A stretch of 64,000 bases of DNA from positions 496,001 to 560,000 of the forward strand of contig CP145418.1 of NCBI GenBank assembly GCA_036867785.1. Reading direction: 5' to 3'. The position numbers were made by a program, and so were the translations under genes. Shown here in pieces: positions 11,186 to 57,666 of this stretch (its first letter is position 1; each line of letters starts with the position of its first letter). The DNA is from Plasmodiophora brassicae. Its lineage: Eukaryota. Under the pieces are notes generated by a model, which saw nothing but the letters and a program-made list of their open reading frames with translations, was not told where the DNA came from and ran no database searches.

Positions 11186-12319
11186 CTACCAGTCCCACTC
11201 ATGGTCGAAGTGCCCATCGTGCCCGTCGTGGCCAAAGTGCCCGTCGTGTCCGTCGTGGTCAAAGTGCCCGTCGTGGCCATCGTGCCCAAAGTGGCCCTCG
11301 TGCCCGTCGTGCCCGAAGTGGCCATCGTGCCCAAAGTGGCCATCGTCGTGACCAAAGTGACCATCATGATCACCAAAGTGTCCATCGTGGCCAAAGTGGT
11401 CGTCGTGGCCGTGGTGCCCATCATGGTGCTCGTGCTCGTGCTCGTGACCGTGCATGAGCATCGGGTCGAACTCGTGCTCGTGGTCGTCGTGGCCGCGCAT
11501 GTGGTCGTGGTCGTGCACATAGACGGGCTCGTGGACGTGCTCGTCGTGGTGGTCGTGGTGCCCGTGCACGTCACCCAGGAACTCGTCGTGGTCGTGCTCC
11601 TCGAAGAACGTCGGGTGGTCCTGCTGTCGCATGCCGAAGTCGGCGTTCTCGTGCCCGTTGTGGGCGACCGGGTCCGCGTGGTGCTCCTCGCCCTCGTGCG
11701 GGTGCAGGTGCTGCCAGTCGTGCGGATGGACGCCCTCGCCGAACTCGAAGTTGTTGAGCTCGCCGCCGTTCGCGTGGCCCAGGTTGGCGTGCGTCGAGAT
11801 CGGGTTGTGGTCGTTGACGTGGTCGGAATCGTGGTGGTCGTGGTGGCCGTGGTGGCCGTGGTGATGGTCATCGTGCCCGTGCCCGTGGTCATGCTCGTCG
11901 TGCGCCACGCCGTCCAGGGCCTCGTGGTCGTGGTCGTGGTCGTGCTCGTGGTGCGCATCGTCGAGGTCGTGCTCCATGTTCTGGTGGGCGCCCTCGCGTT
12001 CGACCAGACGCAGATGCTCGTTGTCGTGGGCCAGCTCGTGCGAGTTGTCCATGTGCTTCGAGTACAGGTCCGAGTGGTCGTCAGTGGCCGTCACCGTCGC
12101 CGTCAGCGTCGCCGTCGTCTGCACGTTCGACTTGTCGTTGCCCTTGTGCTGCAGGATGTTCTCGCCCTTGTTCCTGTCGTTGGCGTTGACGTGGTTGTCG
12201 TTGTGGACGGCGCTGATGGCCCGGGCGCCGTGGGCCTGATCCCACCGGTCGTGTCGCTGGGCGGCGGCCATCGCCATGGCCAGCATCGAGACGAGCAGCA
12301 GACTCCGCATTGTTGTCAT
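11186..12319 (-). CDS. Secreted histidine/aspartate-rich protein (large family, copy A) with GHDGHF repeats
   Basis: Signal peptide MTTMRSLLLVSMLAMAMAAA, very His/Asp/Gly-rich body, C-terminal (GHDGHF)n repeats and strong C/G-ending codon bias. It shares the TATxTATxTATD..REGAH block with 22989-23819. Confidence 0.85.
   Translation of the reverse strand: MTTMRSLLLVSMLAMAMAAAQRHDRWDQAHGARAISAVHNDNHVNANDRNKGENILQHKGNDKSNVQTTATLTATVTATDDHSDLYSKHMDNSHELAHDNEHLRLVEREGAHQNMEHDLDDAHHEHDHDHDHEALDGVAHDEHDHGHGHDDHHHGHHGHHDHHDSDHVNDHNPISTHANLGHANGGELNNFEFGEGVHPHDWQHLHPHEGEEHHADPVAHNGHENADFGMRQQDHPTFFEEHDHDEFLGDVHGHHDHHDEHVHEPVYVHDHDHMRGHDDHEHEFDPMLMHGHEHEHEHHDGHHGHDDHFGHDGHFGDHDGHFGHDDGHFGHDGHFGHDGHEGHFGHDGHDGHFDHDGHDGHFGHDGHDGHFDHEWDW
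11200..11420 (-). repeat. Coding tandem repeat encoding GHDGHF/GHDGHD units
   Basis: Recurrent 9- and 18-nt units such as gtgcccgtc, gtggccatc and gtgcccaaa on the plus strand. Confidence 0.85.
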
Positions 12320-22988: not shown

Positions 22989-23819
22989 TCATTGTGCTGC
23001 AGGTGGTGCAGGGCCGTCCAGTGCCGGTTTGGCGTCGGACTGGGCGGCGCCACCATTCTTCTTGTCGATGAACGGGAACAGCACCTTGAGAACCTCGACG
23101 TCCTGGAGGAAGCTGAGGTCCGGTGGCGGCGTTGTGGGTGCGACACCATCAGGACCGACAGCAACGTCGCCGTCGAGATGGGCGTGACCTTGATCATGGT
23201 GGGCACCTTCGCGCGCATCTTCGGTTATCGCATCATGGCCTCGTTCTAGAGATGCCTCGTGAGCGTCCCGGTGCACCTTAATATACGAATCCTCCTTCTC
23301 GTCGGTTGCTGTTATGGTTGCCGTTATGGTCGCGACAGTTTCGGTTTTCACCTTGTTCTTGCCGACGTGAACCTCCAGGTCGTCACCGCCTTCGCGAGCA
23401 TTGCCCAGGATGTTGGCTGCCTCAGCAACTCTAGCGTGGTCCACTTCGTGCGTTGAACCTTCGTTAGCCTGATGCACTTCAGCAGTGGGAGGCGCGTGTT
23501 GTTCGCCACGGTGCACAGGACGAGGATCCTCGTGTGGAGGAAGAACCTCCCGGCCGTATTCGTCGACGGCAATAGGGACAAGGATATGTGGCCTAGGCGG
23601 CACGTCCGCCGCTGGCCTGAACTCATCGGGGCGTTGTTGCTGCCTGTCTACTGGGGGCACGATTGGCCTGCCGAACTCGTCGACTCGTGTTGCGCCCAGG
23701 TGCTCCGGGGCAGGGGGATGGAAACTGGGAGGTTCTCGCCTCGGTAGGGCGTTGTCGAACCCATGACAGATGGCCGCGATCCCCACCGAAACAATGAGGA
23801 TGGCGAGGCGCGACGCCAT
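22989..23819 (-). CDS. Secreted Pro/His/acidic protein (large family, copy B)
   Basis: Signal peptide MASRLAILIVSVGIAAICHG, repeated VDE[FY]GR motifs, and the block KVKTETVATITATITATDEKEDSYIK..REGAHHDQGH shared with 11186-12319. Confidence 0.8.
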   Translation of the reverse strand: MASRLAILIVSVGIAAICHGFDNALPRREPPSFHPPAPEHLGATRVDEFGRPIVPPVDRQQQRPDEFRPAADVPPRPHILVPIAVDEYGREVLPPHEDPRPVHRGEQHAPPTAEVHQANEGSTHEVDHARVAEAANILGNAREGGDDLEVHVGKNKVKTETVATITATITATDEKEDSYIKVHRDAHEASLERGHDAITEDAREGAHHDQGHAHLDGDVAVGPDGVAPTTPPPDLSFLQDVEVLKVLFPFIDKKNGGAAQSDAKPALDGPAPPAAQ

Positions 23820-30673: not shown

Positions 30674-31384
30674 ATGCCGTCGAGCGAGTCGGGCGACGAC
30701 GGCGACGACGATGTTGCGGTGTGCCCGATATGCCTGGGCGAGATCGTCCATCCGACCGTGGCGAACCTGACCTGCCTGCATCAGTTCTGCCGGGACTGCA
30801 TCGTCAGATGGGTGGCCGTCCGCCCGGTCTGTCCTGTGTGTCGGACGGGGTCGCCGGCCGCTCTCGTTGGCGTCGTCCTGACGCAACAGGTGCTTGTCCG
30901 TTGGCGCCAGCTCATCTACGAGCGTGGCCTTAGAGCCATTCCAACTACTAGTCAAACACGGGCGCTAACCCCCGAACAGATCAGATCACCAGAGCTACGG
31001 AAATGGGTATTTCTTCATGTCCTTATCAAGTCAAATCGATGTGACGTTGTCCTCCAGCTGTTTCGTGAACTCATCGCTGTCTGTGGGTTTAAAGACGATC
31101 CGAAGAATTCCGCTTTGGACTATGCTGTCAACGCTGTCCTGGCCGTTCTCCTTGACCTGCGGACGATCGGTGAATCAAAAGCTGTTGATATTCTTTCGAT
31201 ATTCATGTCGGCGTGCAGTCGACCTCGACTTGAGGCGTTCTTGCACGAATTGCAGTGCAGAGCCTATAGTGCGTTAGATAATCTCAACTACGACAGGTAC
31301 GACGCAAGTCACATTGGAAACCCGCTGACTGATTCGTTCCTGCCAGCTATGTTCGTTATAGGGAAGGATTGTCGGGACCTATAG
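30674..31384 (+). CDS. C3HC4 RING E3 ligase, Topors/Psh1-like
   Basis: CPICL..CLHQFCRDCIVRW..CPVCR, then WRQLIYERGL, LFREL and FLHEL..AYS..YD. Internal introns are likely and the 3' end is approximate. Confidence 0.75.
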   Translation: MPSSESGDDGDDDVAVCPICLGEIVHPTVANLTCLHQFCRDCIVRWVAVRPVCPVCRTGSPAALVGVVLTQQVLVRWRQLIYERGLRAIPTTSQTRALTPEQIRSPELRKWVFLHVLIKSNRCDVVLQLFRELIAVCGFKDDPKNSALDYAVNAVLAVLLDLRTIGESKAVDILSIFMSACSRPRLEAFLHELQCRAYSALDNLNYDRYDASHIGNPLTDSFLPAMFVIGKDCRDL

Positions 31385-31556
31385 CCGATAGTCAATATCC
31401 TGGAATTCGTAGGCGTTTGGACACCCGTCGGCGGAAGCGACTTCGAAGATAAAGTCCATTGTTTCCTACGAGCTCACGTTTCCATCGTATCCAGCACAAC
31501 CGCGCTTCCCTAAAACTGGACGCATCAACGAACTGCCGCGAAGTCGGCGATGGGCA

Positions 31557-34500
31557 ATGGTTGCCGGCATGCGTCGCATGATGTGCGTTTCAAGCGGCGG
31601 GCATGCTTCGTGTCAAGCTGTCCGGGGATGTTGCCACTATCCAAGTGGGCTGCGGTACAACGTGCGCCCGTTGTCGTCTGCCGACGTGCAACCCGTCCAT
31701 TGCATTGCAAGGCGAATCTCGCGACCATCCGATGAATTTATCGCCTTCATGGGACGCCCGTCGATTCCATTTGGTATCCGAGCGTTGAGGCAGGAAACCG
31801 ATCCCAGTCGCGCCTGGTCCATATTCGATCGTGTTCTCTCGTTGAGCATCTGGGCGGACACCCCGTTCTACACGTCCATGATGTCATTCTGCAAACGCCA
31901 TCTGCCTTCCAAAGCGCCCGAAGTGCTCAGCGCCGCTGTATCTCGGGGCGTTCGCATCACCGAATCATTGTTCTGCACCTTTCTTGGGGCGTGTCAGAAC
32001 GCTACCCCAGCCATGGTGTCCGAGGCCCTCGAGTGGTATTCGAAACCATCAACCCCACGTTCACATAATGTCATCTTTGGTGTCGCCAACCTGTGCCGAG
32101 TATCCAAGCACCCGGGTCTAGCCCTGTTCCTTGTCAAGGACATCGTCGACCACAATGTGCCCTTCACTGACCAGTTGGTATCCATCCTAGCGGCGTGCTG
32201 TTCTGAATCCAAGGGGCCCATCGCTGCGTGCACTGCACAGCAACTGCTCGACCGCATGCAATCCGGACAGATATCACGACACTCGCTGATGCCAACGTAT
32301 GCCAACCTGCTGACGACGCTGCTCGCCGAGGACTTGCTGAAGTCCGCGCTGGCAGTGTTCCCATTGATGAAATTGAACGGCGTCCTGCCCTCGGAATCGA
32401 TGTGTGCCAATACGATCATTGCCCTCTTGAAGAAGGGTCGCACTCACGATGCGTTGAATGTGTTCCAAACGATGGTGGACCAGAGTCTGAGAGTCAACGC
32501 TCGCGTCTTCGTTACGCTCGTTGCTGCTTGCGGCCGATCGGGCAAAGATTCTGCTGTCCAAACCTTGTACACGTACGCGACTTCTAAAAACCTTATAGCC
32601 GACGATTTCGTTGCTTCTGCTTTCATCTCGGCCTACGACCATTGCGGAAAACTCGACTTGGCGGAAGAGGTGTTTCGGTCTCGAGGCGTTCCCGATTTGA
32701 TCACGTCCAGTGCCATGATCGCTGCATACTACCACCATGTCAGGCTGCCTAATGCCATCGGCGTTTTCGAACGTGTGAAGGCCAACGGTTTGCAGATATC
32801 CCTGGAGGTTTACACGAATGCGCTGTCTGTGTTTATCAAGGCCGACCGGGTGGCCGATGCAATGAACTTGTTCAACGAGATGACCAGCAAGAACGTCCGG
32901 GTGGGCATTCCAGCGCTCGCTAGTCTCATCGCCGCCTGTGGACGATCGTCGAACCTGGACTCGGTCCAATCCCTCTACCGGCATGCAGAGAACAGGGCGC
33001 TGGTTCTCGATGATGTCATCGCCAGTGCGTTCATCTTCGCGTTTGACCACTGCAGTGATGTCGCATGCGCCGAAAGAGTGTTTCAAGTGCGACAGCAGGT
33101 TTCGACTCCCCACGTGGTCACCTTCAGTTCAATGATTGCCGCGTACAATCACCACAACATGCACGCTAAGGCCCTCGAGACGTTCGATAACCTTGAGGTA
33201 GCTGGCTTATCGACATCGGTCCCCGTTTTCTGTAGTATCGCCGCTGTCTTTGTCAAAGTCGGACGTGTGCTGGACGCGTTGCGCTTGTACGAGCGCGTGC
33301 AAGGCGACATGTCCCGTTCTCGTGCGGTGATGTTCGCCAGTCTTGTCGGTGCTTGTGGACGATACGCTGATCTGCCGGCCGTGCAAACCGTTCACCAATT
33401 CGCCGAGCAGGATTCGGGATTGCTGTTGAAGGACGACGCAGTCGTCGGTGCATTCGTCTTGGCCTACGGGTCCTGGGGCGACCTCGATACTGCTATGCGC
33501 CTGTTCAACGGCCTCGATGTAGGCCAGTATCCATTGACCAAGAACGCCATGGTGACCTCCTACGCCCGACACGGCATGTTGCCCAATGCGATCGCCGTAT
33601 TCGAGGGCATGCTGTCGTCGTCGGTCCCAATCTCCGGCGGCACGTACGGCACCATGCTATCCGTCTACGGTCGGTCGGATCGCGTTCTCGAAGCGCTCGG
33701 CTTGTTTCGCGCCGTCGTCTCCAGGAGCCTCGTCGTGGACGCCGGTGACATCGCAAGTCTTATTGCCTCCTGCGGCCGTGCGTTTGACGTCCAGGCCATG
33801 GTCCAATTGCATGGCTTCGCGCGGGAACGCAACATGCTGCAGGACCGTCGTGTAATCAGCTCGTTGGTCACTGCCTACTCTGACTGTGGGTGTCTCCCTT
33901 CTGCCGAGGACGTGTTCCGGACGACGGAAGCGCCGTCCACCACCGTCATCAACTCGATGATCGCTGCGTATGCCCAGCACGGCATGCTGCAGCAGGCAAC
34001 GGCCGCGTTCGACACGATGCGGGCGATAAAACGTCGACCGAACGACGAGACGCTACTGGCACTGCTAACGGCCTGCGCTCACGTTGGCGACCTTCCCGCT
34101 GCGAATGCGTTTGTTGCCGAATTCACCCTCCGCTGGCGTGTCGCCATGACCTCGTTGCACGCGAACTGTTTTATCGACCTGTATGGGCGCCTGGGCGACC
34201 TGGACGCCGCTGAACGGCTCGCGTCGTCGCTGTTGATCCCCAGTGCCGCGTCGTGGGCGGCGCTTCTGAATGCATGTCGACGGCATGGCGACCTTGAACG
34301 TGCCGAGCGCGTCGTTGCCCGGATCCAGGCGTTTCCCGACGCCGGCTCCCATCTGGTCTCTGCGTATACGCTCATGGCGGATCTGTACATGAGCGTCGGG
34401 CGGGTCGACGATCACCGTCGAATGCGCGAGGAGATGGGCACCCAGGCGCTAACGCAGGCGCCTGGCCGGGCCACGCTTGCGCTGCCTGATCGGCCCGTCA

Positions 34501-34865
34501 GGCACTTCGCCTCGAATGATCCGATGCGCCTGCCCGATGCTGCGCTGCGAGGCGCGCATGCGCGACTGATCGACACGGCTACTGATGGAGGATACCTCCC
34601 CGATCTGTCTTCCTCCCCGCCGGACGACGATAACGCCCGGCAGTCGGTCCATGGTCATTGCACGAAGGTTGCAGTCGCGTATGCGCTTATGAAGGTGCCG
34701 CCTGGCGAGCCGCTACGGCTGTCCACGACCCGACGCATCTGCCCTGACTGCCACGACTTCCTCCAGCGGATCTCTGCCGTCATGCAGTGCCACGTTTCAG
34801 TTCGCGATCCCGCCCGCCATCATCACTTCCAGGAAGGGCCATGCTCATGCTGCGGCTACTGGTAA
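31557..34865 (+). CDS. Pentatricopeptide repeat protein with E- and DYW-like domain (organelle-targeted)
   Basis: 1102-codon intronless ORF with many PPR-like repeats (e.g. VVTFSSMIAAY, TVINSMIAAYAQHG), SWAALLNACRRHG, PG box APGRAT, HCTKVA..RICPDCH and terminal HHFQEGPCSCCGYW. Confidence 0.93.
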   Translation: MVAGMRRMMCVSSGGHASCQAVRGCCHYPSGLRYNVRPLSSADVQPVHCIARRISRPSDEFIAFMGRPSIPFGIRALRQETDPSRAWSIFDRVLSLSIWADTPFYTSMMSFCKRHLPSKAPEVLSAAVSRGVRITESLFCTFLGACQNATPAMVSEALEWYSKPSTPRSHNVIFGVANLCRVSKHPGLALFLVKDIVDHNVPFTDQLVSILAACCSESKGPIAACTAQQLLDRMQSGQISRHSLMPTYANLLTTLLAEDLLKSALAVFPLMKLNGVLPSESMCANTIIALLKKGRTHDALNVFQTMVDQSLRVNARVFVTLVAACGRSGKDSAVQTLYTYATSKNLIADDFVASAFISAYDHCGKLDLAEEVFRSRGVPDLITSSAMIAAYYHHVRLPNAIGVFERVKANGLQISLEVYTNALSVFIKADRVADAMNLFNEMTSKNVRVGIPALASLIAACGRSSNLDSVQSLYRHAENRALVLDDVIASAFIFAFDHCSDVACAERVFQVRQQVSTPHVVTFSSMIAAYNHHNMHAKALETFDNLEVAGLSTSVPVFCSIAAVFVKVGRVLDALRLYERVQGDMSRSRAVMFASLVGACGRYADLPAVQTVHQFAEQDSGLLLKDDAVVGAFVLAYGSWGDLDTAMRLFNGLDVGQYPLTKNAMVTSYARHGMLPNAIAVFEGMLSSSVPISGGTYGTMLSVYGRSDRVLEALGLFRAVVSRSLVVDAGDIASLIASCGRAFDVQAMVQLHGFARERNMLQDRRVISSLVTAYSDCGCLPSAEDVFRTTEAPSTTVINSMIAAYAQHGMLQQATAAFDTMRAIKRRPNDETLLALLTACAHVGDLPAANAFVAEFTLRWRVAMTSLHANCFIDLYGRLGDLDAAERLASSLLIPSAASWAALLNACRRHGDLERAERVVARIQAFPDAGSHLVSAYTLMADLYMSVGRVDDHRRMREEMGTQALTQAPGRATLALPDRPVRHFASNDPMRLPDAALRGAHARLIDTATDGGYLPDLSSSPPDDDNARQSVHGHCTKVAVAYALMKVPPGEPLRLSTTRRICPDCHDFLQRISAVMQCHVSVRDPARHHHFQEGPCSCCGYW

Positions 34866-35016: not shown

Positions 35017-36820
35017 CATGGGCGTAGATGCGGCATACGATGGCACCGGCAAGGCGGCGAGCAGGCCACTCGGGTCCATGGCCATCGGCCTGGCCGTCGC
35101 TGCCTCGATCGGCCTGTTCGGGATGGCGGCCACGATACGCGCCCGGCTGTCGATTGCCGACCTCGTGCCGGTGTGGACGCTACAGGCCACCGCACCTTGG
35201 GTGCTCGCGTTCGTGATCGCCAGCGTGCTGCTGGCTGTCACCTTCCAGCAACGACGCTTCCGGCTGCCCAAGGTATTCGGCGGGGGCGGCGACGACGACG
35301 ACGGCCCACAGCGGTGGCTGACGCGGACGCTGTTTCGAGTGGATGGCAGCGCGCCGGAACACACCCTATCGGCAACGGCTCGCGAGCTGGTATCGGTGGT
35401 GGCTCCTGTCGGGACCCGCTGGGTGTTCGGCAAGGCGTGCCGATCCGGGGCCACTGGGTGGATCCCTCAGTCGGCGCTGGAAAGCGTCGACAACGACAAG
35501 GCGCCTGACATCGAACGCGAACGCCTGCGTGTGCAATTTCGGGACGATCATTTCCCCGATTCGTCCACGCCGGCGCCGTTGCCGCTGGCAACCGGCATCA
35601 TCTGGTGCGTCATCGTCATCAACCCCGACCGGCGGATCGCGTCGGGCGTGTCGTTGGGCGCGTCCAGCGGCCACGTGGCCATCGTGGAGATGAGCCCCGG
35701 GCGGCGATCCGTTCGTGTCGGCGGCCCCGCCCCGGTCGACATTGATGAGCCCAGCAGCGGCACCGTCGACGGCGACACGATTGCGAACCTGTTCGCGTGG
35801 GTGCACACCCGCCTGGAACCGCTGCGCTCCGTCGTGATCATCGAAGGGACTCCCAGCCCCTGCCCCGCCATTTCAGGTACCGTTTATGCGAATCGACAGA
35901 CAGGCAACGGAACCGGTGGCTCACAGCGACAGGTAGGCGAGTGGAACGGCGAGGCGTCGCCGGCGTGGGTGTCGCTGGATATCCTATCGGCGCACCTGCA
36001 GCGCGTTCATCTGCGTTGCGAGATTGCGCTGCTGGTCGTGCATCAGACCACACGTGCAACGCTGCAGACGCTGCACGCGTTGTACAACTGTTGCAGGGTG
36101 CTGGTGGCGCCACAGACCTGCCAGGCTGCATTATCGTCGCCGTCGACGCCACTCGATCTGATTCACACGTTGAGCACGCGACCAGAGGCGGATGCGGAAG
36201 ACTTGGCGGCGACGGTCAGTCGAGGGTCGTCTATGACTGAAATGTACACGCGAGCGTATCCCGAGGTGGCCGTTGCTCTGAAGACGTTCCTGACCGTGAC
36301 GTCATCGGTGCTCAGCCTGGCCGATGACGGCGAGAGGACGGCGCTTCGGGAACACGTGTCACCATGGATCCACGATTCGGATGCCAGCGGCGCGATGATC
36401 GATCGATATGTCGATGTCGTCGGGTTCTGCAGCGCGGTCGTGCGGGTGTTTCCCGAGGTGTCAGAGCTGGGCAGGTTGTTGGACGACCTTGTGACGGCGA
36501 TGGCTGACATGGTGGTCCTCCGGGACCGTACGCAGACGTTCTGCGGCCTGTCGATGTTTATGCCGGTCTGGGCGTCGCCCGTCGATCACGCCCGAATGAG
36601 GATCATGTCCCAGTGGAACACGTACGTCGACGAGATGAAACTGTTCTACGCGTTCTACGACGTTACGCCAAGGCTGCACGCGCGTCTCGACACACCTGGA
36701 AAGAGCATCCAGGGATCAGATGGCAAGCAGCACCGCGCTCGCGATTCGAAAACGGAAGTCGATCCCGCTGAGAAACGATTCCTGCGGCGGAAGAACGGCA
36801 ATCGTGGCATGACTCGATGA
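35017..36820 (+). CDS. Two-TM + SH3 + degenerate clostripain (peptidase C11)-like protein
   Basis: Two hydrophobic helices, SH3-like LSATARELVSV..WVFGK..GWIPQSAL, and a C-terminal region following the clostripain motif order without the catalytic His/Cys. Confidence 0.6.
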
Positions 36821-50500: not shown

Positions 50501-51083
50501 CGGCGACAGCGACAGCCGCGCATGACATGGTCAAGGACGGCGTACCAGTAGTAACGCCTGCGGTCGTCGGGATTGCTTCCAGGCGCACCCCCCACCGTCA
50601 CCTATCGTTTACCGGCCGGTCACGATCAACGTCATCGCGTGCCGGCGCCGCAACCCCAGAACCGTCCCCGTCACATCATGAGGCATCATTGCTGTCGGGT
50701 CCGTTGCGCTCGTCGTCATCCGCATCTGCGTACTTCTCGGTTCCACTCCCACTTCATCCAGTACGTATGATGCCGTCAAGCACATGACCGTCCATTGGCA
50801 ATCGACGAAAAGTACTGGTCGGCGTGCGGGTCAGGGTCATGCGATCGGCCTCCTTGCGGTCTTCTCGGGGATTGTCCCCCCAGATATTGTGCCCGAGGTA
50901 GCATTTCCAATACCCCATTTGGACACCTGTTATGGTCACTGGGTTGTCATTTTCGGAAGATGCTACGGTCGCGGTGCTGAAGCTTGTGAGGTGCGCGCGC
51001 GGCCGCGCGCGGCCGAATATAGCCAGTGCGCAAATTTCGGGCCCACTGCAGTTGACTCCCCCGGTGTTCAGATCGCTTCCGTC

Positions 51084-54000
51084 ATGCGTTTCCGATGGAT
51101 TTGGCGCTGGTGCCTCGTTGCCGTCGTCGTCGTCACCGTCGAATCATTTGCTGACGATGGCGCTGTCGAACGCGACCGAAGCAGGCTGGACCAACTGACG
51201 ATCGATGAACTGGTCGACCTGTTGGACAATGCCACTCGTTCAGAGCCCTTGATGCCTGCTTGGGAGTGGCCGGAGATGGCTGCCTTGCAGAGGAAGATGG
51301 CGAATCTGCCAGCAACAGAGGCGGTCGACAGCCTGGTCTACCTTTATTCCCGGGTCCGACATGGGATCGAGGATATCGTCCGCCAGACCGCTGTGGCAGT
51401 CCTCGATCAGTCTCCCACGGTAGATACGAATAGGCTCTTAAGCCTGGCAACCATCGTGTGGGATAGGTTGGGTCGTGATCATCAGACATGGCCGCTTGTC
51501 CAGCATGTTGCTTCTACAATGATTCCTGTCGTTGCGACACTGAACGTGGCCCAGATCAACCAGCTCCTGTCTCTGATCGCCGGAGGAGGCCCTATGTTAT
51601 CCCAGCAGCTCATGGAGGTCATGCTGTCGGACTTGTCATCGTTCACGAATAAGACCAGCTGCCTGATCGACATCCTTTCCCATCTGTTCTACAGCGTCGA
51701 TATTGGTGATACATACCCACTGCTCGACGTGGCCGCCCCGATTCTGTCGGCGAGTGTATCATCGCTCACCGCGAAAGACGTGGTAAGGACGGCGAATCTC
51801 TACGCCGAGGCAACCGCAAGGGGTCCTGCCCCGTCCAGCTTTTCCGGCGCTTATATTGGTGCCTGGGCATTCATCACGACGATCTTTCCCGACGCCGCAC
51901 GACAGGTCGTTGCCCCCCAGCCAATTTCAGGCAACCTTTCCAACCTGTTTGACGCCATCTTACGACGAGCGCTGTCGACCCGCAACGTATTTTCTGTCGA
52001 CGATATTGCCACGCTGTCGAAGTGGTTCCGGCGGGCCGGCCTGGAGTCTGCCGCGGCATTGCTTCGCGACCGGGTTGCACCCTGCAATCATGCCACAATC
52101 GACGAGCTGGTTGACATGCTGCTCAGCGAATCTGCATTGGACTCCGTCTTGCCTGCTCGTGAACGGCCGGAAATGATTGCCTTGCAGAGGAGGATGGCGA
52201 ACCTATCAACAACTGAGGCGATTGACCATCTGGTCTGGATAACTAAGTCCCTGGTCTCCGGAGGGACCGAAGACATCGTCCGCCAGACCGCTGTGGCCGC
52301 CCTCCATCCGTCTGCCAACGTTGATGCAGATAGGCTTATAAAACTGGCGACCGTCATCGCGGAGAATCCTGGGAGCGACATCTACACAATCATGTCCCTT
52401 TGGCAGTCGCTTGTTGCCTCTACCCTCATTCCTGCCGTTCCGATGCTGACCGAGCTCCAACTGCAGCGCCTGTATCGACTGATCCAGCGTGTATCACCTT
52501 CACTGTCCCACCAGATTATGGAGGTCGTCCTGAGCGACATGTCGCCCTTCGCAAACAAGACCAACTGCCTGATCGACACCCTGGCCCTTGTTGTCGAGAA
52601 CGTTGACCCTGCCGCCGTGTACCCATTGTTCGACGCGGCGGCTCCGATTCTGACCCGGGATTCGGAGTCACTCACCGCGCAACAGGTGGCCCAGACGGCG
52701 TACCTGTACGCCAGGGCAGGCGTAGGCCCGTCCGTCCCGCCAGGCACCCCTGCCACCACTGACGAATACTGGGCCGACCTGTCCGCGATATTCCCCAACC
52801 TGCCACGACAGATCGCGTCCGGCCGTCAGCAAATGACGAATAACACTGCTGGCCTGTTCGACGCCATCTTGCATCGGGCGCTGTCCGCCTCCTTCGGCTT
52901 CCGTATCGTCGATATCGCCCGACTGCTGATATCGTTCCGGCGTGCCCGTCTGGATTCCGCCTCGGCATTGCTCCGGGATCGGTTCGCTCCGACCGTACGT
53001 TCATCTCTGCCTTCGGACGTCACGACGCTCTGTATGCTCATCATATCGTTTCGCGACGAACCGGACACGCTCGACGTCGAGCGTGACTGCCATAACGACA
53101 TCAGAAGGGTCGCGTTCCAGAGGCTGGTGATGTCCCATACTCTGCCCTCCATAGCGGAGCATCCCCTGATCTTGTCGGCGGTCGAGTTCGCGTTCTCTCC
53201 CCGCCTGCCCACCATTGTTCCCGAAGTTACAGGCTTTAGGTCATCGGATATCGAATATCGTTCCTGTCAAGGCACGGCGAGGGTAATAGCCTTATTCGTC
53301 AGGCATCGTCATGCTGCGCCTTTCGATTTCGTTCAGGACGTGGTCATCAGGATGCTCACATCGTCGTTATGGAGTGACGTGCATCTGTTCGAACTGGTCG
53401 ACGCCCTCGTGATCCTCGCCGAATCTGGGGCTGACTCTACGATGCTGTACGATGCATTTACTGTTGTCCTGTTCCGCCATATCGACGACATCGACCCGGT
53501 ATCCACGTCTCGGGTGCTGTGGGCATTCGCTCTCGCCGACCTGCCCCGGTACGCGATCGGGTTCCTGCCTCGCCTCACCAATGTCACGTTGGACGCTCTC
53601 TCCCCGCACATGATGACCGGCCTGAACAGCTGGCGAATGTCGATGCCTGACGATGAGTACGCCGGCATCATCAAGGGCTGCCCTGATGCAGTCGCCGACC
53701 TGTTCGACCGATGTCTTGATTGGGTGCGTGATCAGCCCCTTGAGAACGATCTGGGGCGCCGCTGCCCGCGTACCGGGCACGTGATCGACTCGGTCGGTGA
53801 CGACGGTGCGACCGCCATCGTCATCTACAAGAGCCGGCCCATCGACATTGTCGCGCGCCTTCGGCATCGGTCTCTTGCCCGGCACGGCTGGACTGTCAAG
53901 GGTTTCGTAGGCTCTCAGGCCTCGAAATGCCTAGCGATCACCGACAATATGGATGCTCTTCAGATCGCCACTCGACGTGGCGATGTCGCGCAGGTCACCA

Positions 54001-55529
54001 GCCTGCTCAGACGACGTCCGTCGATCGTCTCATACGAGAAGCCCAGGTGGACCCCAATGCATACGCTCGCCCAGTCGGGTCGCGGAGACATCACGTCTCT
54101 GATTGATGCGCTGAGTTCCTATTTCCGGCTGTGTGCTGGCACTCTGGATGGCCAGACGCCGTTCGACGTCGCCCAGGTCAGCAACAATGAGCACGTGACG
54201 CAGGCTCTGGGCCACAAGCGTGCCAGTTGCCGCGGGCGGGCACCCAGGTTTCACGTGCGCCCTGACGTCCAACCATTTACTGGCATCCCGGTGCTGTCCC
54301 TGTACACGGGTGGTTCCAGTTCGGAGGAGCCGCTCATCGTCTTCGCCAGGAGCAATGCCCCCGTGACGTCCAGGATGGAATCCGTGCTTCACGTTGTCGT
54401 ACGGTATGAGGCCGACCTGGGCACGATCGGCGGGACCGTCGATCAGTTGGTGGCCGATGGCGTTTCTGTCACCCTGCACGACGCCGACGGACGCACGGTA
54501 TTGCATGAGGTCGCACGTCGAGGGTACTCTGACGACCTTGTCGAATTGCTCCTGGGCCACGGCGCCGCCATCAACGCTGAGGACTATCAGGGGCAGACGC
54601 CGTTGCACCTGGCCGCTGATAACGGGCGAGCCGAGATCGTCCGCTGTCTACTCGACCAAGGAGCCGATATCGACGCCGCCGATCGCCAGGGTCGTACCGC
54701 TCTGCACCTGGCGGCCGAGAGTGGTCGCAACGAGGCCATTGACGTCCTGATTCGGCGCGGCGCCAACGACACTGCTGTCGACAGTCGAGGGCGCCGACCA
54801 ATCGATGTTGCCTTGGATCCGGACACTCGTGCAACGCTGTCGAATGCAATCCGCGATCGTCGTTCGCTTCCACGTCGAGTCGATGACGTCGCTGTCACTC
54901 CTGATGATGAGGAGGCCCGTAGCCAGCAGCGTGATGATGATCCCTCGCCTCCATTGCCTTCGATCGTTGATACCGGGCGCCCCCCTGAACCGGTACAGTC
55001 CGCTGACACGGGGGCACTATTTGCATCGGCCAACGCGACCGACGCCAAGCTCAGTAGGATTGTCCAGTGGTCGAACTGGGCCCAATACGTCGCCATTGGC
55101 GGGTCGTTACGCGTACTCGCCGCCAGCGCGAAGGCTCGATATCGTCCATCGCGGCCAACATCGTCAACGCCACGCCGGCAAGACGCTGTCCTGACCAGCG
55201 CGTCGCTGGTTGCAGGATTGGCCGTTGGAGTCGCTGCCAGTCGAATCCGTCTGCACCTGCTCTCAAGCACCGGTCCCGGCCTAGCCCAACAGCACTCTCC
55301 CGACCAGCGGCCCAGAACGACCCCAGTTCCATGGGGTGCTATCGTCGTCGGAACCGTTGTCCTCCTCATCATTTGCATATTCATCTACCGCTTGCAGGCC
55401 GATGACATCACTTGTCCTGACATGTGCTGCCTGGGGCAGATCTGCATTGCCTGGTATCGGTTCCGCGTAATGATCGGGCGTCCTCCAAGGTCCCGAGCTT
55501 GTCGGACCCTGCCGAACGCCCAACAGTAA
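51084..55529 (+). CDS. Large signal-peptide protein: duplicated helical region, RAP-like segment, ankyrin repeats, C-terminal TM helices
   Basis: Signal peptide MRFRWIWRWCLVAVVVVTVESFA, an internal duplication of about 300 aa, RLRHRSLARHGWTV, ankyrin repeats (GQTPLHLAADNG, GRTALHLAAESG) and TM WGAIVVGTVVLLIICIFIY. Intronless. Confidence 0.88.
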   Translation: MRFRWIWRWCLVAVVVVTVESFADDGAVERDRSRLDQLTIDELVDLLDNATRSEPLMPAWEWPEMAALQRKMANLPATEAVDSLVYLYSRVRHGIEDIVRQTAVAVLDQSPTVDTNRLLSLATIVWDRLGRDHQTWPLVQHVASTMIPVVATLNVAQINQLLSLIAGGGPMLSQQLMEVMLSDLSSFTNKTSCLIDILSHLFYSVDIGDTYPLLDVAAPILSASVSSLTAKDVVRTANLYAEATARGPAPSSFSGAYIGAWAFITTIFPDAARQVVAPQPISGNLSNLFDAILRRALSTRNVFSVDDIATLSKWFRRAGLESAAALLRDRVAPCNHATIDELVDMLLSESALDSVLPARERPEMIALQRRMANLSTTEAIDHLVWITKSLVSGGTEDIVRQTAVAALHPSANVDADRLIKLATVIAENPGSDIYTIMSLWQSLVASTLIPAVPMLTELQLQRLYRLIQRVSPSLSHQIMEVVLSDMSPFANKTNCLIDTLALVVENVDPAAVYPLFDAAAPILTRDSESLTAQQVAQTAYLYARAGVGPSVPPGTPATTDEYWADLSAIFPNLPRQIASGRQQMTNNTAGLFDAILHRALSASFGFRIVDIARLLISFRRARLDSASALLRDRFAPTVRSSLPSDVTTLCMLIISFRDEPDTLDVERDCHNDIRRVAFQRLVMSHTLPSIAEHPLILSAVEFAFSPRLPTIVPEVTGFRSSDIEYRSCQGTARVIALFVRHRHAAPFDFVQDVVIRMLTSSLWSDVHLFELVDALVILAESGADSTMLYDAFTVVLFRHIDDIDPVSTSRVLWAFALADLPRYAIGFLPRLTNVTLDALSPHMMTGLNSWRMSMPDDEYAGIIKGCPDAVADLFDRCLDWVRDQPLENDLGRRCPRTGHVIDSVGDDGATAIVIYKSRPIDIVARLRHRSLARHGWTVKGFVGSQASKCLAITDNMDALQIATRRGDVAQVTSLLRRRPSIVSYEKPRWTPMHTLAQSGRGDITSLIDALSSYFRLCAGTLDGQTPFDVAQVSNNEHVTQALGHKRASCRGRAPRFHVRPDVQPFTGIPVLSLYTGGSSSEEPLIVFARSNAPVTSRMESVLHVVVRYEADLGTIGGTVDQLVADGVSVTLHDADGRTVLHEVARRGYSDDLVELLLGHGAAINAEDYQGQTPLHLAADNGRAEIVRCLLDQGADIDAADRQGRTALHLAAESGRNEAIDVLIRRGANDTAVDSRGRRPIDVALDPDTRATLSNAIRDRRSLPRRVDDVAVTPDDEEARSQQRDDDPSPPLPSIVDTGRPPEPVQSADTGALFASANATDAKLSRIVQWSNWAQYVAIGGSLRVLAASAKARYRPSRPTSSTPRRQDAVLTSASLVAGLAVGVAASRIRLHLLSSTGPGLAQQHSPDQRPRTTPVPWGAIVVGTVVLLIICIFIYRLQADDITCPDMCCLGQICIAWYRFRVMIGRPPRSRACRTLPNAQQ
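51198..52991 (+). repeat. Intragenic tandem duplication (about 0.9 kb x2)
   Basis: TIDELVD[LM]L..PEM.ALQR[KR]MANL..EDIVRQTAVA..NKT[SN]CLID..LFDAIL..LLRDR.AP occurs at 51198-52083 and again at 52095-52991. Confidence 0.9.
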
Positions 55530-56145
55530 ACTGTTATTATACGCCAGCTCTGTGGTGGTCACCAGCCGTGCTGGGGAAGTGGCGAGACCGGACCATTTGA
55601 CAACCGACAAACGGGACGCCCACCTGCTGAACACTGCCGCTCGATCGGGGTCCTTGTCGCCTGCCCGGGAATGGATGGAGAAGGTGTGCCGCGGGATGGA
55701 CGCGATATCGCCAGGCAACAGTGACATTCGTCGTCGGATCCGTCACCTCCATGGTCATCTGTGTCTTCAGGCGCCGAATCGTATACAGTGACTGCGTGTG
55801 CGTTGGCATATGCTGCTTCCTGGAAACAGGTCGGCTTCGCCTGGCGCCGGTTCCGGGTTGCCATCGGGCGCCCTCCAAAGTCTCGTGCCCGTCGATACCG
55901 CTCCCAAATCCTACCATAGTCAGCCTGAACCTGCCACATGAAGCTGAAGTTCCCGAAACAGTCCAGGCTGTTGCCCAGGTGGTGGAGGTGCAGTGGTGAT
56001 GATCGATCTATCAGGGTCGTTGAGAGAAGGGTCGTTGGGCGGGGAGACGCCGAAAATAGGTCTGCTGTCTGCGAGCGACCGGTCCAGTCAGTGCGTTCAT
56101 GCCCAATCGACCAAGGTCCTCCATTGTTGCAGGATCCCTGCCATC

Positions 56146-57666
56146 ATGCATTCCTGCTGGAGCTGGCCCTTCAGCATCGTCGTCATCGTCGCCGCCGCCG
56201 CCGCCGCCGCTGGTGTACTGGCATCCGATGATAGCGCGCGCGACGACACGATCGACTTGGACCTGCGCCGCGGGACACGTCGCCAATTGGTCGACGATTG
56301 GAGTCCCGTGTCCCATCGGCATGAGATTTGCGTCCAGAAATCTCCTCCCTTGGTGCTTTCCGTCCTGCTGTCGAAGCTGTCCAACGTGTCAGCAACGGAG
56401 GCGGATGGCTGTCACGTGCTGTGCACCCTGACCCTGAAGGGATACGGGCGCGCGCCGACCATCAAACTGAAGCTCGTGATCCGCGCAAGCGGCCCCATGG
56501 ACGCCCAGGTCAAGATACGCCGCCACATATTTGGGCTGACGTTCCGCCCTGGCACCGGGATGCTCAGCCAGGCGGGCAGCTGGGCAGTGGCATCCAGCAT
56601 AGAGTCCCTGATTCGCTTCGTCGCGCGCCGTGAACGCAATATGACGAACGCCCGCAGAGTACGGCTGGTCGGCAAGGGCTTCCCCGGTCGCGCTCGTGAT
56701 GTTGATCGGCGTACAGCAGCGCTGCCCGAAGTCGCACGTCGTGGGTTTTCTGGGGACGACCGCGGCGCCGCTGTTCATGCCCATGACTATCAGGGTCGGA
56801 CGCCCCTGCATCTGGCCGCCGATAACGGGCGAACACAGGTCGTTAAGCGCCTCCTCGCCCCAGGTGCAGAGAACAATGCCGTCGACAGACAGGCTCGTAC
56901 CGCTCGGCAACTGCCTGCCGAAAGCGGCCGCTACGACGTCGTTGACGTCCTGAATCAACACGGTGCTGCTGTCGACCATCGGCGATGCCGACCCCGCGCC
57001 AATGTTACGTTGGGTGAGACCGATTGTCCCCCGCGATGCAACGACACCCGACAACGTCAACGCCGTCTGCCTACTGCCGTTTCGGATGCCCCTGGGCGTG
57101 TACCTGAACGTGACTCACAGACATTCCGGGACCCTGACGCGTCGAACGGTCCAGAATCGTCCGCCTCGGACGAAGGGTACCCCGGCAATCGTCCTGATGA
57201 CATGGGATCCAAGGTGACCAAATGGCCGAGCTGGGCAACCATCTTGGTATCGTCAACCGTTCTCGCGGATCATGCATGGGCGCGGTACTGGCCATCGCCG
57301 CCCGTAACAGGACCGGCAATGCGGCGGGACCATGGCGCGCTCGTGACCGGGGCGTCCTTGGTAGCAGGTGCCGCTGTCGGTATCATTGCCAGGCGCGTCC
57401 ATCGCCGCCTAACGTCACCTGCCCGACAGCACCGTCCCCACCATCAGCAGCGCAGGACCATGGCCATGCCCGTCCCATGGGGCGCTATCGCGGTCGGACT
57501 CATTGCCCTGGCCGCCATCTGTATCCTGATCTACCGGTTCCGGCCCGATGACCGGGCCTGCTTCGGTTTGTGTATCCGCCTGAGGCACATCGGCATCGCC
57601 TGGTACCGGTTCCGGGTGATGATCGGGCGCCCGCCACGGTCGCGTGCCTGTCGGTTCCGCTCCTAG
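56146..57666 (+). CDS. Internally deleted paralog of the 51084 gene (signal peptide, residual ankyrin, TM tail)
   Basis: Signal-like MHSCWSWPFSIVVIVAAAAAAAG, DYQGRTPLHLAADNGR, and the identical tail IAWYRFRVMIGRPPRSRACR. It may be decaying. Confidence 0.7.
   Translation: MHSCWSWPFSIVVIVAAAAAAAGVLASDDSARDDTIDLDLRRGTRRQLVDDWSPVSHRHEICVQKSPPLVLSVLLSKLSNVSATEADGCHVLCTLTLKGYGRAPTIKLKLVIRASGPMDAQVKIRRHIFGLTFRPGTGMLSQAGSWAVASSIESLIRFVARRERNMTNARRVRLVGKGFPGRARDVDRRTAALPEVARRGFSGDDRGAAVHAHDYQGRTPLHLAADNGRTQVVKRLLAPGAENNAVDRQARTARQLPAESGRYDVVDVLNQHGAAVDHRRCRPRANVTLGETDCPPRCNDTRQRQRRLPTAVSDAPGRVPERDSQTFRDPDASNGPESSASDEGYPGNRPDDMGSKVTKWPSWATILVSSTVLADHAWARYWPSPPVTGPAMRRDHGALVTGASLVAGAAVGIIARRVHRRLTSPARQHRPHHQQRRTMAMPVPWGAIAVGLIALAAICILIYRFRPDDRACFGLCIRLRHIGIAWYRFRVMIGRPPRSRACRFRS

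Follow-up and report, generated by a model that had tools for sequence, protein, structure and literature searches.

A PPR-E1-E2-DYW protein of Plasmodiophora brassicae with threonine at the catalytic glutamate position, and the family to which it belongs

What might a plant-style RNA-editing factor do in the genome of an intracellular plant parasite once its catalytic Glu has been replaced? The question is posed by a pentatricopeptide repeat (PPR) protein gene of Plasmodiophora brassicae, the clubroot parasite, in the stretch of DNA analysed here (the window: 64,000 nucleotides of contig CP145418.1, assembly GCA_036867785.1, positions 496,001 to 560,000). A single open reading frame (ORF; window 31557–34865, + strand) encodes the 1102-amino acid (aa) protein P0001, in which Thr stands where the H-x-E motif of the C-terminal DYW domain should have its Glu. 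The initial annotation had regarded such a protein as a sporadic oddity; that view had to be abandoned, as P0001 is one of 43 DYW paralogs, 21 of which are without a catalytic residue. The Glu-to-Thr change is ordinary in the P. brassicae genome, and the family is the main point. The parts of the gene are as follows.

31557–34865, + strand: intronless gene for the PPR-E1-E2-DYW protein P0001, 1102 aa (ORF, Pfam, RNA contigs)
31557–31748, + strand: N-terminal leader, aa 1–64, a putative mitochondrial presequence (composition)
31749–32393, + strand: family-specific N-terminal region, aa 65–279 (~215 aa), common to 71 genome loci
32394–33938, + strand: PPR array, aa 280–794, P-L-S followed by three P-P-L-S units (motif and self-similarity analysis)
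33939–34244, + strand: P2-L2-S2 triplet, aa 795–896 (alignment to 9kfx)
34245–34460, + strand: E1-E2 motifs, aa 897–968 (Pfam, alignment to 9kfx, model)
34461–34865, + strand: DYW deaminase-fold domain, aa 969–1102, from the PG box to the terminal G-Y-W and stop
34662–34664, + strand: ACG, encoding Thr1036 where H-x-E has its catalytic Glu (alignments, RNA contigs)
34740–34850, + strand: C1062-x-x-C1065 (catalytic zinc, with H1034) and H1066/H1089/C1096/C1098 (structural zinc), all kept

The protein and its catalytic site

The description of the protein as a PPR-E-DYW factor in a non-plant genome was borne out. Pfam PPR families matched many repeats strongly, and the concern raised with the annotation, that the domain might fail the DYW hidden Markov model, did not materialise (DYW_deaminase: aa 1013–1102, 81.3 bits, cut-off 24). 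The E_motif match was weak (17.6 bits, below the cut-off of 27.3); the E1-E2 stretch aligned to the synthetic PPR-DYW protein 9kfx and is helical in the AlphaFold model. For the modelled C-terminal 329 aa (mean predicted local distance difference test score 88.6), 9kfx was the best structural match (template modelling (TM) score 0.77), with the OTP86 and DYW1 domains also matching. On sequence and predicted fold, the protein is assigned to the PLS-class PPR-E1-E2-DYW structural family, with a P-P-L-S unit as a variant.

The codons CAT-TGC-ACG at 34656–34664 encode H1034-C1035-T1036. No local gap interrupts the alignment of the HCTK tetrad with the HSEK/HSER tetrads of 9kfx, DYW1 (7w86) and OTP86 (7o4e), and Thr1036 therefore occupies the Glu column. 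The full C-terminal layout reported initially was seen again, with a PG box (P969-G970), C-x-x-C-H, a terminal C-S-C and a final Y-W (last three residues G-Y-W); the second zinc site reads H1066-x22-H1089-x6-C1096-S-C1098, and all seven zinc ligands are kept (DYW signature and second zinc site as defined in PMC10318007). Compared with H-x-E-x25-C-x-x-C of an active DYW cytidine deaminase, the His and both Cys are present but Thr1036 stands for Glu. In moss PPR65 expressed in E. coli, Ala at any signature residue, Glu included, abolished editing (PMC6397227); the mutagenesis described there used Ala, and Thr lies outside that set. By strong inference from these mutants, the deaminase of the window protein is very probably inactive, as had been supposed. 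DYW:KP U-to-C editors are defined by a kept Glu in an H-A-E-type motif together with an altered C-terminus; the motif H-C-T-K and the canonical-like C-terminus exclude the window protein from that class.

RNA contigs from 4/4 runs (four studies) span the entire ORF without a single differing letter or gap, all carrying ACG; reads with GAG at this codon, which could have overturned the annotation, were not seen. The RNA nature of the contigs was judged from spliced GT-AG introns in adjacent genes, the splice joints lying at 31005–31057, 31293–31344 and 35874–35935 and none within the ORF. Since the contigs skip the neighbours' introns yet cross the ORF unchanged, the codon is real, transcribed and unedited, and the gene is indeed intronless among intron-bearing neighbours. 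A second allele, P0002 (labelled Plasmodiophora brassicae), differs at 12/1038 residues and has the same Thr, so that alignments, RNA contigs and allele agree on the replacement. Its differences all fall within aa 73–791, with 0/12 in the last 311 aa; the C-terminal 323 aa of P0001 are 100 % identical to P0002. Two artefacts were excluded: a sequencing error at the ACG codon (by RNA contigs and second allele) and a hidden intron or frameshift in the ORF (by RNA contigs).

A family of intact and disabled paralogs

Scoring of all DYW paralogs, a check suggested with the initial annotation, was carried out on the 25.3-Mb assembly (20 contigs), from which all 43 DYW matches above the cut-off were extracted. 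H-x-E and C-x-x-C are both kept in 22/43; 13/43 lack only the Glu, which is replaced by six different residues (Ala 3, Val 3, Pro 2, Asp 2, Thr 2, Cys 1); and 8/43 lack a catalytic-zinc ligand. The catalytic-zinc ligands are thus kept in the window protein and 12 other Glu-less paralogs, while the structural zinc ligands are kept in 42/43. The family-specific N-terminal region, which probably consists of divergent PPR-like repeats, was matched at 71 loci; 29 of these are without a DYW match, and none of the 29, all of which were fetched, extends to a DYW core. In 40/43 paralogs the N-terminal region and the DYW domain lie in one open frame. The lack of introns is therefore a family trait and gives no sign that this particular gene was itself transferred. 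Two loci (C4:1602269–1606059 and C8:145308–148449) have PPR and DYW in separate open frames, through a frameshift, an intron or a split gene, the DYW part of the former being intact; at C7:245663–245884, a DYW-like segment in a 172-aa frame has lost two zinc ligands, and the family N-terminal region is absent from the frame.

Two short paralogs were omitted from a quick tree that combined the other 41 with five plant proteins. The Glu-less members are scattered on it, and their 12 rows require 11 changes of the label, against a mean of 10.6 after shuffling. This scatter and the six substitutes fit repeated independent loss. Across the C-terminal 322 columns the window paralog is ≤49 % identical to any other and is therefore old. 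The nearest (C-terminal region 49 %) is the intact member of a tandem family pair (C15:488863–493298) whose other member has Pro for Glu.

One reading of these data is that P0001 is a decaying editor, its target cytidine having become T in mitochondrial DNA (mtDNA) or the gene being a redundant duplicate, with Glu lost by drift and truncation ahead. The family does form a graded series from intact through Glu-lost, zinc-ligand-lost and DYW-less members to broken loci, and loss of a factor after C-to-T conversion of its site has been described (PMC6424221). However, for all its age the paralog has kept a 3.3-kb frame, its seven zinc ligands and the terminal Y-W; by Pfam score its DYW domain stands 16th among the 43; and the gene is transcribed. 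We consider decay unlikely.

The repeat unit also departs from the plant pattern. In P0001, 15 motifs (P-L-S and three P-P-L-S) precede P2-L2-S2, E1-E2 and DYW, giving 18 PPR motifs in total; motif lengths within the array are 35, 35, 35–37 and 31–34 aa (P, P, L, S) and its self-similarity period is 136–139 aa. In the 16 family members that reach 850 aa or more, the best lag was 136–147 in nine, 102–104 in three, 127 in one and 170–175 in three, compared with 101–102 in 79/103 long non-Plasmodiophora proteins. The two P motifs of the quadruplet separate as distinct profiles, the profiles having been seeded from the window protein. The P-P-L-S quadruplet, as opposed to the plant PLS triplet, is common in the P. 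brassicae family. Other units were also seen: P-P-L-L-S quintuplets at C18:557008–560421, and L/S-rich arrays in two loci (L061, C12:109616–113125, and L068).

Disabled domains were far rarer among the outside matches. A profile built from 20/43 paralogs was searched against 1.84 billion representatives, and the top 150 proteins comprised 21 at least 97 % identical to P. brassicae paralogs and 129 that were ≤~30 % identical. The family N-terminal region is absent from all 129, and a search with that region found two proteins among 1447 candidates, both from P. brassicae. Ninety of the outside matches have a DYW domain, 86 of them intact, so that catalytic loss stands at 21/43 in P. brassicae versus 4/90 outside (Fisher p 4e-9). 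For 18 of 29 outside matches checked, the organism could be established: Balamuthia and Willaertia, both among the best-scoring, and Ginkgo, Cryptomeria, Amborella, Nymphaea, Aristolochia, Pistacia, Selaginella, Diphasiastrum and Sphagnum; none of the 18 was a phytomyxid. A Spongospora or Polymyxa relative was not identified among the top 150, a weak absence because ranking of representatives by whole-protein score favours long proteins and returned only 21 Plasmodiophora entries. In metagenomes, 180 pattern matches yielded 0 confirmed relatives.

The phylogeny proposed with the initial annotation was realised as quick trees only. With ten paralogs and 31 outside matches, the family is one starred long branch nested in no sampled plant group; ancient transfer and ancient inheritance may each account for it. 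Recent transfer from the Brassica host was not supported, since the family is not nested among the 15 named land-plant rows of this tree, which itself gives no placement. The same evidence bears on the idea that the protein is host-directed, delivered to plant organelles where it would bind or compete for host editing sites. An intracellular plant parasite with a protein of plant-like domain order invites that idea; on the other side, the leader is basic and, judged by eye, shows no obvious hydrophobic signal stretch, the old family does not fall among the sequences of the host lineage, and the parasite's own mtDNA offers ample substrates. We regard it as barely credible.

As for earlier records, the label DYW is attached to three P. 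brassicae genes in a supplement, the UniRef name of P0002 includes DYW, and PMC13386178 gives 31 DYW domains for Rhizaria. Our literature search, with most subscription papers outside its reach, turned up no paper describing this P. brassicae family; in the main text of two P. brassicae genome papers, a term search met neither PPR proteins nor editing, and passages of PMC8298192 and PMC13746701 hold nothing on it.

Mitochondrial RNA and possible roles

The initial annotation proposed a mitochondrial role, and by composition the leader would fit a mitochondrial presequence. Its first 40 aa hold five Arg/Lys and no Asp/Glu, and a leader net charge of at least +3 with ≤1 acidic residue occurs in 24/40 members versus 3 % of internal control windows. 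The mtDNA published for P. brassicae carries 54 introns, 45 of them group II by MFannot, compared with five introns in Spongospora, and only three maturase-like ORFs and one LtrA-like ORF (PMC6823432). Its authors mapped transcripts; the main text is without mention of editing or PPR proteins. In the assembly searched here there was no cox1 match and no group II intron match, and a mitochondrial motif search of metagenome contigs gave 0 matches, records of the P. brassicae genome possibly being excluded there. Several introns of cob, cox1 and nad1 start with GTGTG or GTGCG-like sequences and end with AT or AC. Such intron ends are typical of group II introns. The 'new splicing pattern' of PMC6823432 may correspond to degenerate group II boundaries.

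Candidate editing codons were sought by eye in 5/11 parts of Table S6 of PMC6823432 (cob, nad1, nad4L, cox2, nad9, cox3, rpl14, rpl16 and parts of cox1 and atp1). A candidate was a codon whose encoded residue never occurs at that column in bacterial homologs, these being picked by a conserved motif, and whose C-to-U product does. Five were found in the ten genes read wholly or partly. In cob, an Arg codon (CGG, exon 3) falls in a column with Trp 71, Leu 36, Phe 11 and Arg 0 (118 alphaproteobacterial homologs parsed from 120 loci), and a Ser codon (TCT, exon 4) in one with Tyr 88, Phe 7 and Ser 0 (99 homologs); C-to-U change would give Trp and Phe, respectively. The CGG codon sits two codons ahead of W-G-G-F-S-V-D, and the TCT codon follows Y-P-Y. 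Two Ala codons of atp1 face Val in 20/20 and Val 19 plus Ile 1 of 20 (20/26 loci parsed), and an Ala codon of rpl14 faces Val 26 and Ile 1 of 27. Only at the cob Arg would editing remove a charged residue from a column that is otherwise purely hydrophobic. An Arg codon of nad9 was dropped (Arg in 2/25 bacterial homologs), as was a nad9 Ser codon whose edited product is also unseen in bacterial homologs; rpl16, nad1, nad4L, cox2, cox3 and the cox1 exons read gave no strong site, judged by eye against known conservation only. C-to-U editing in P. brassicae mitochondria is, on this manual reading, plausible and would be sparse. At several positions of cob, cox1, cox2 and nad9 where homologs have Pro, the codon is one for Ser or Phe, which C-to-U editing cannot fix; lineage divergence or U-to-C change could lie behind these.

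If such sites are edited, P0001 could be an editing guide, its array marking a cytidine while an intact paralog supplies the deaminase in trans, like E+ proteins and DYW donors in flowering plants. The 22/43 intact paralogs, the five candidate codons (cob, atp1, rpl14), the recruitment of a deaminase in trans by plants (bioRxiv 10.64898/2026.09.04.749523) and the intact P2-L2-S2-E1-E2 of the window protein are all consistent with this. However, five candidate sites in ten genes are sparse enough for the intact paralogs alone to suffice, and a full-length dead DYW domain would fill the place of the donor domain. The sites themselves are candidates only. Many deviations lie beyond C-to-U repair: about 27 of some 31 cob residues unseen in a 73-sequence bacterial profile (~4 being fixable) and 5/7 atp1 deviations at near-invariant columns, both by eye. 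Moreover, the base upstream of the candidate C is U at both cob sites and G at the three Ala sites, and an upstream G abolished editing by PPR65. A guide role thus appears improbable.

The retained zinc site raises a further alternative, namely another zinc-dependent chemistry such as the site-specific RNA cleavage ascribed to CRR2 or OTP85. Catalytic-zinc ligands persist here and in the 12 other Glu-less paralogs, and DYW endonuclease activity in vitro needed C-x-x-C-H (PMC9459714; PMC10318007). Against this, eight paralogs have also lost catalytic-zinc ligands, and the nuclease activity on record was seen largely in vitro and was suppressed by partner proteins (PMC10318007). We consider cleavage very unlikely.

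The reading that we put forward, and hold to be about evenly balanced between right and wrong, is that the window protein aids the maturation of mitochondrial RNA in a sequence-specific but non-catalytic way, probably serving one of the ~54 mostly group II introns, like PpPPR_43 of the moss Physcomitrium. A nucleus-encoded descendant of a PLS-DYW C-to-U editor that can no longer deaminate would be imported into mitochondria through its basic leader; its 18 PPR motifs and N-terminal region would bind one transcript; the DYW domain would persist as a folded, zinc-bound cap; and the job would be RNA maturation without chemistry, most likely folding or splicing of one mtDNA group II intron. Across the family, ~22 intact paralogs would serve the sparse editing sites and ~50 non-catalytic members (21 with a dead DYW domain and 29 DYW-less) the introns and RNA ends. 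That the disabled copies help to process the intron-rich mitochondrial RNA of P. brassicae is probable. In favour of this reading stand the intact, transcribed ORF, the lack of allele differences in the last 311 aa, the confidently modelled C-terminal fold, the excess of catalytic loss over the outside matches while the structural zinc ligands are kept, the scatter of six substitutes for Glu, the 29 DYW-less loci, the basic leaders, the intron-rich mtDNA with its few maturase-like ORFs, the lack of an identified Spongospora or Polymyxa relative among the top 150 and the moss precedent.

Several points weigh against the maturation-factor reading. Target, localisation and splicing role are all putative, and ~50 non-catalytic members against ~54 introns is a numerical match only. 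GC-rich DNA by itself raises the likelihood of Arg-rich leaders. The 0-of-12 pattern in the C-terminus comes from one allele pair and may reflect a haplotype block; the other allele pairs give no clear dead-versus-intact contrast in constraint, the 13 pairs being too few and too alike for the comparison. The quick tree of paralogs is mostly an unresolved star (3/43 inner branches starred, 26/43 open), and independent losses are not proven by it. Finally, the position-5/last pairs are mostly non-canonical, the code fitting S-D, N-S, N-N and N-S among 14 P- and S-type motifs, and prediction of a target from the PPR code was therefore given up.

More tentatively, and with doubt on balance, we suggest that a single PLS-DYW ancestor gave rise in P. 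brassicae, independently of plants, to a plant-like set of ~72 organellar PPR genes with a P-P-L-S unit of its own, in which ~22 members would edit mitochondrial mRNAs (first candidate, cob Arg to Trp) and ~50 would have shed catalysis repeatedly to become splicing factors for a recent invasion of ~50 group II introns. If true, this would be a direct and large-scale case, outside plants, of editors turned splicing factors, recycled as the mitochondrial genome fills with introns, and would add mitochondrial editing to Phytomyxea. The P-P-L-S unit would lend itself to probing how widely the PPR recognition code applies; this unit, the count of DYW-less members and the checkable candidate codons are new.

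Elsewhere in the window, a RING-finger gene with two introns lies directly upstream (30674–31556), and a downstream gene (35018–36820), with an in-frame 60-nt intron, starts 153 bases after the ORF. RNA contigs run across all three genes, which does not imply a single transcript. Two related proteins on the − strand (11186–12319 and 22989–23819) have signal-peptide-like starts and a T-A-T-x-T-A-T-x-T-A-T-D motif, the former with a long His/Asp/Gly-rich tail and possibly a secreted metal-binding protein. Long + strand ORFs at 50784–55529 and 55999–57666 have ankyrin-like repeats (by eye) and near-identical C-terminal tails.

Comparison with known systems

One close likeness is to the land-plant PLS PPR-E1-E2-DYW editors (PPR65/PPR56, OTP86 7o4e/7o4f, DYW1 7w86 and synthetic 9kfx), with which the window protein shares the P2-L2-S2-E1-E2-DYW order, the PG box, both zinc sites, the fold (9kfx: E 1.4e-82, TM 0.77) and an intronless gene. 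Unlike these, it has Thr for the catalytic Glu, a P-P-L-S array with a period of 136–139 aa (101–102 being typical outside), a family-specific N-terminal region and mostly non-canonical code residues.

DYW-PPR proteins are already on record from outside the plants, often in expanded sets (bioRxiv 10.64898/2026.09.04.749523; PMC11946409; PMC13386178). The proteins of Naegleria, Acrasis, Willaertia, Balamuthia, malawimonads, diplonemids (PPRD1), ascetosporean paradinids and bdelloid rotifers resemble the P. brassicae family in occurring outside plants and in lineage-specific expansion; diplonemid PPRD1 has P-type repeats only. Paradinid and diplonemid proteins are reported to keep their catalytic residues and editing has been demonstrated in those organisms, whereas half of the P. 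brassicae paralogs are non-catalytic and editing is putative.

For the role suggested here, the nearest model is PpPPR_43, a DYW-type protein with a distinct DYW domain that is needed for splicing of cox1 group II intron 3; the PLS-only PpPPR_9 and PpPPR_31 are further moss splicing precedents (PMC9459714). PpPPR_43 likewise combines a long PLS array, E1-E2 and a deviant DYW domain with a mitochondrion that holds many group II introns (PMC9459714). In the moss this is one of 10 DYW proteins and splicing has been shown, whereas in P. brassicae the corresponding class comprises 21/43 and splicing is the inferred function.

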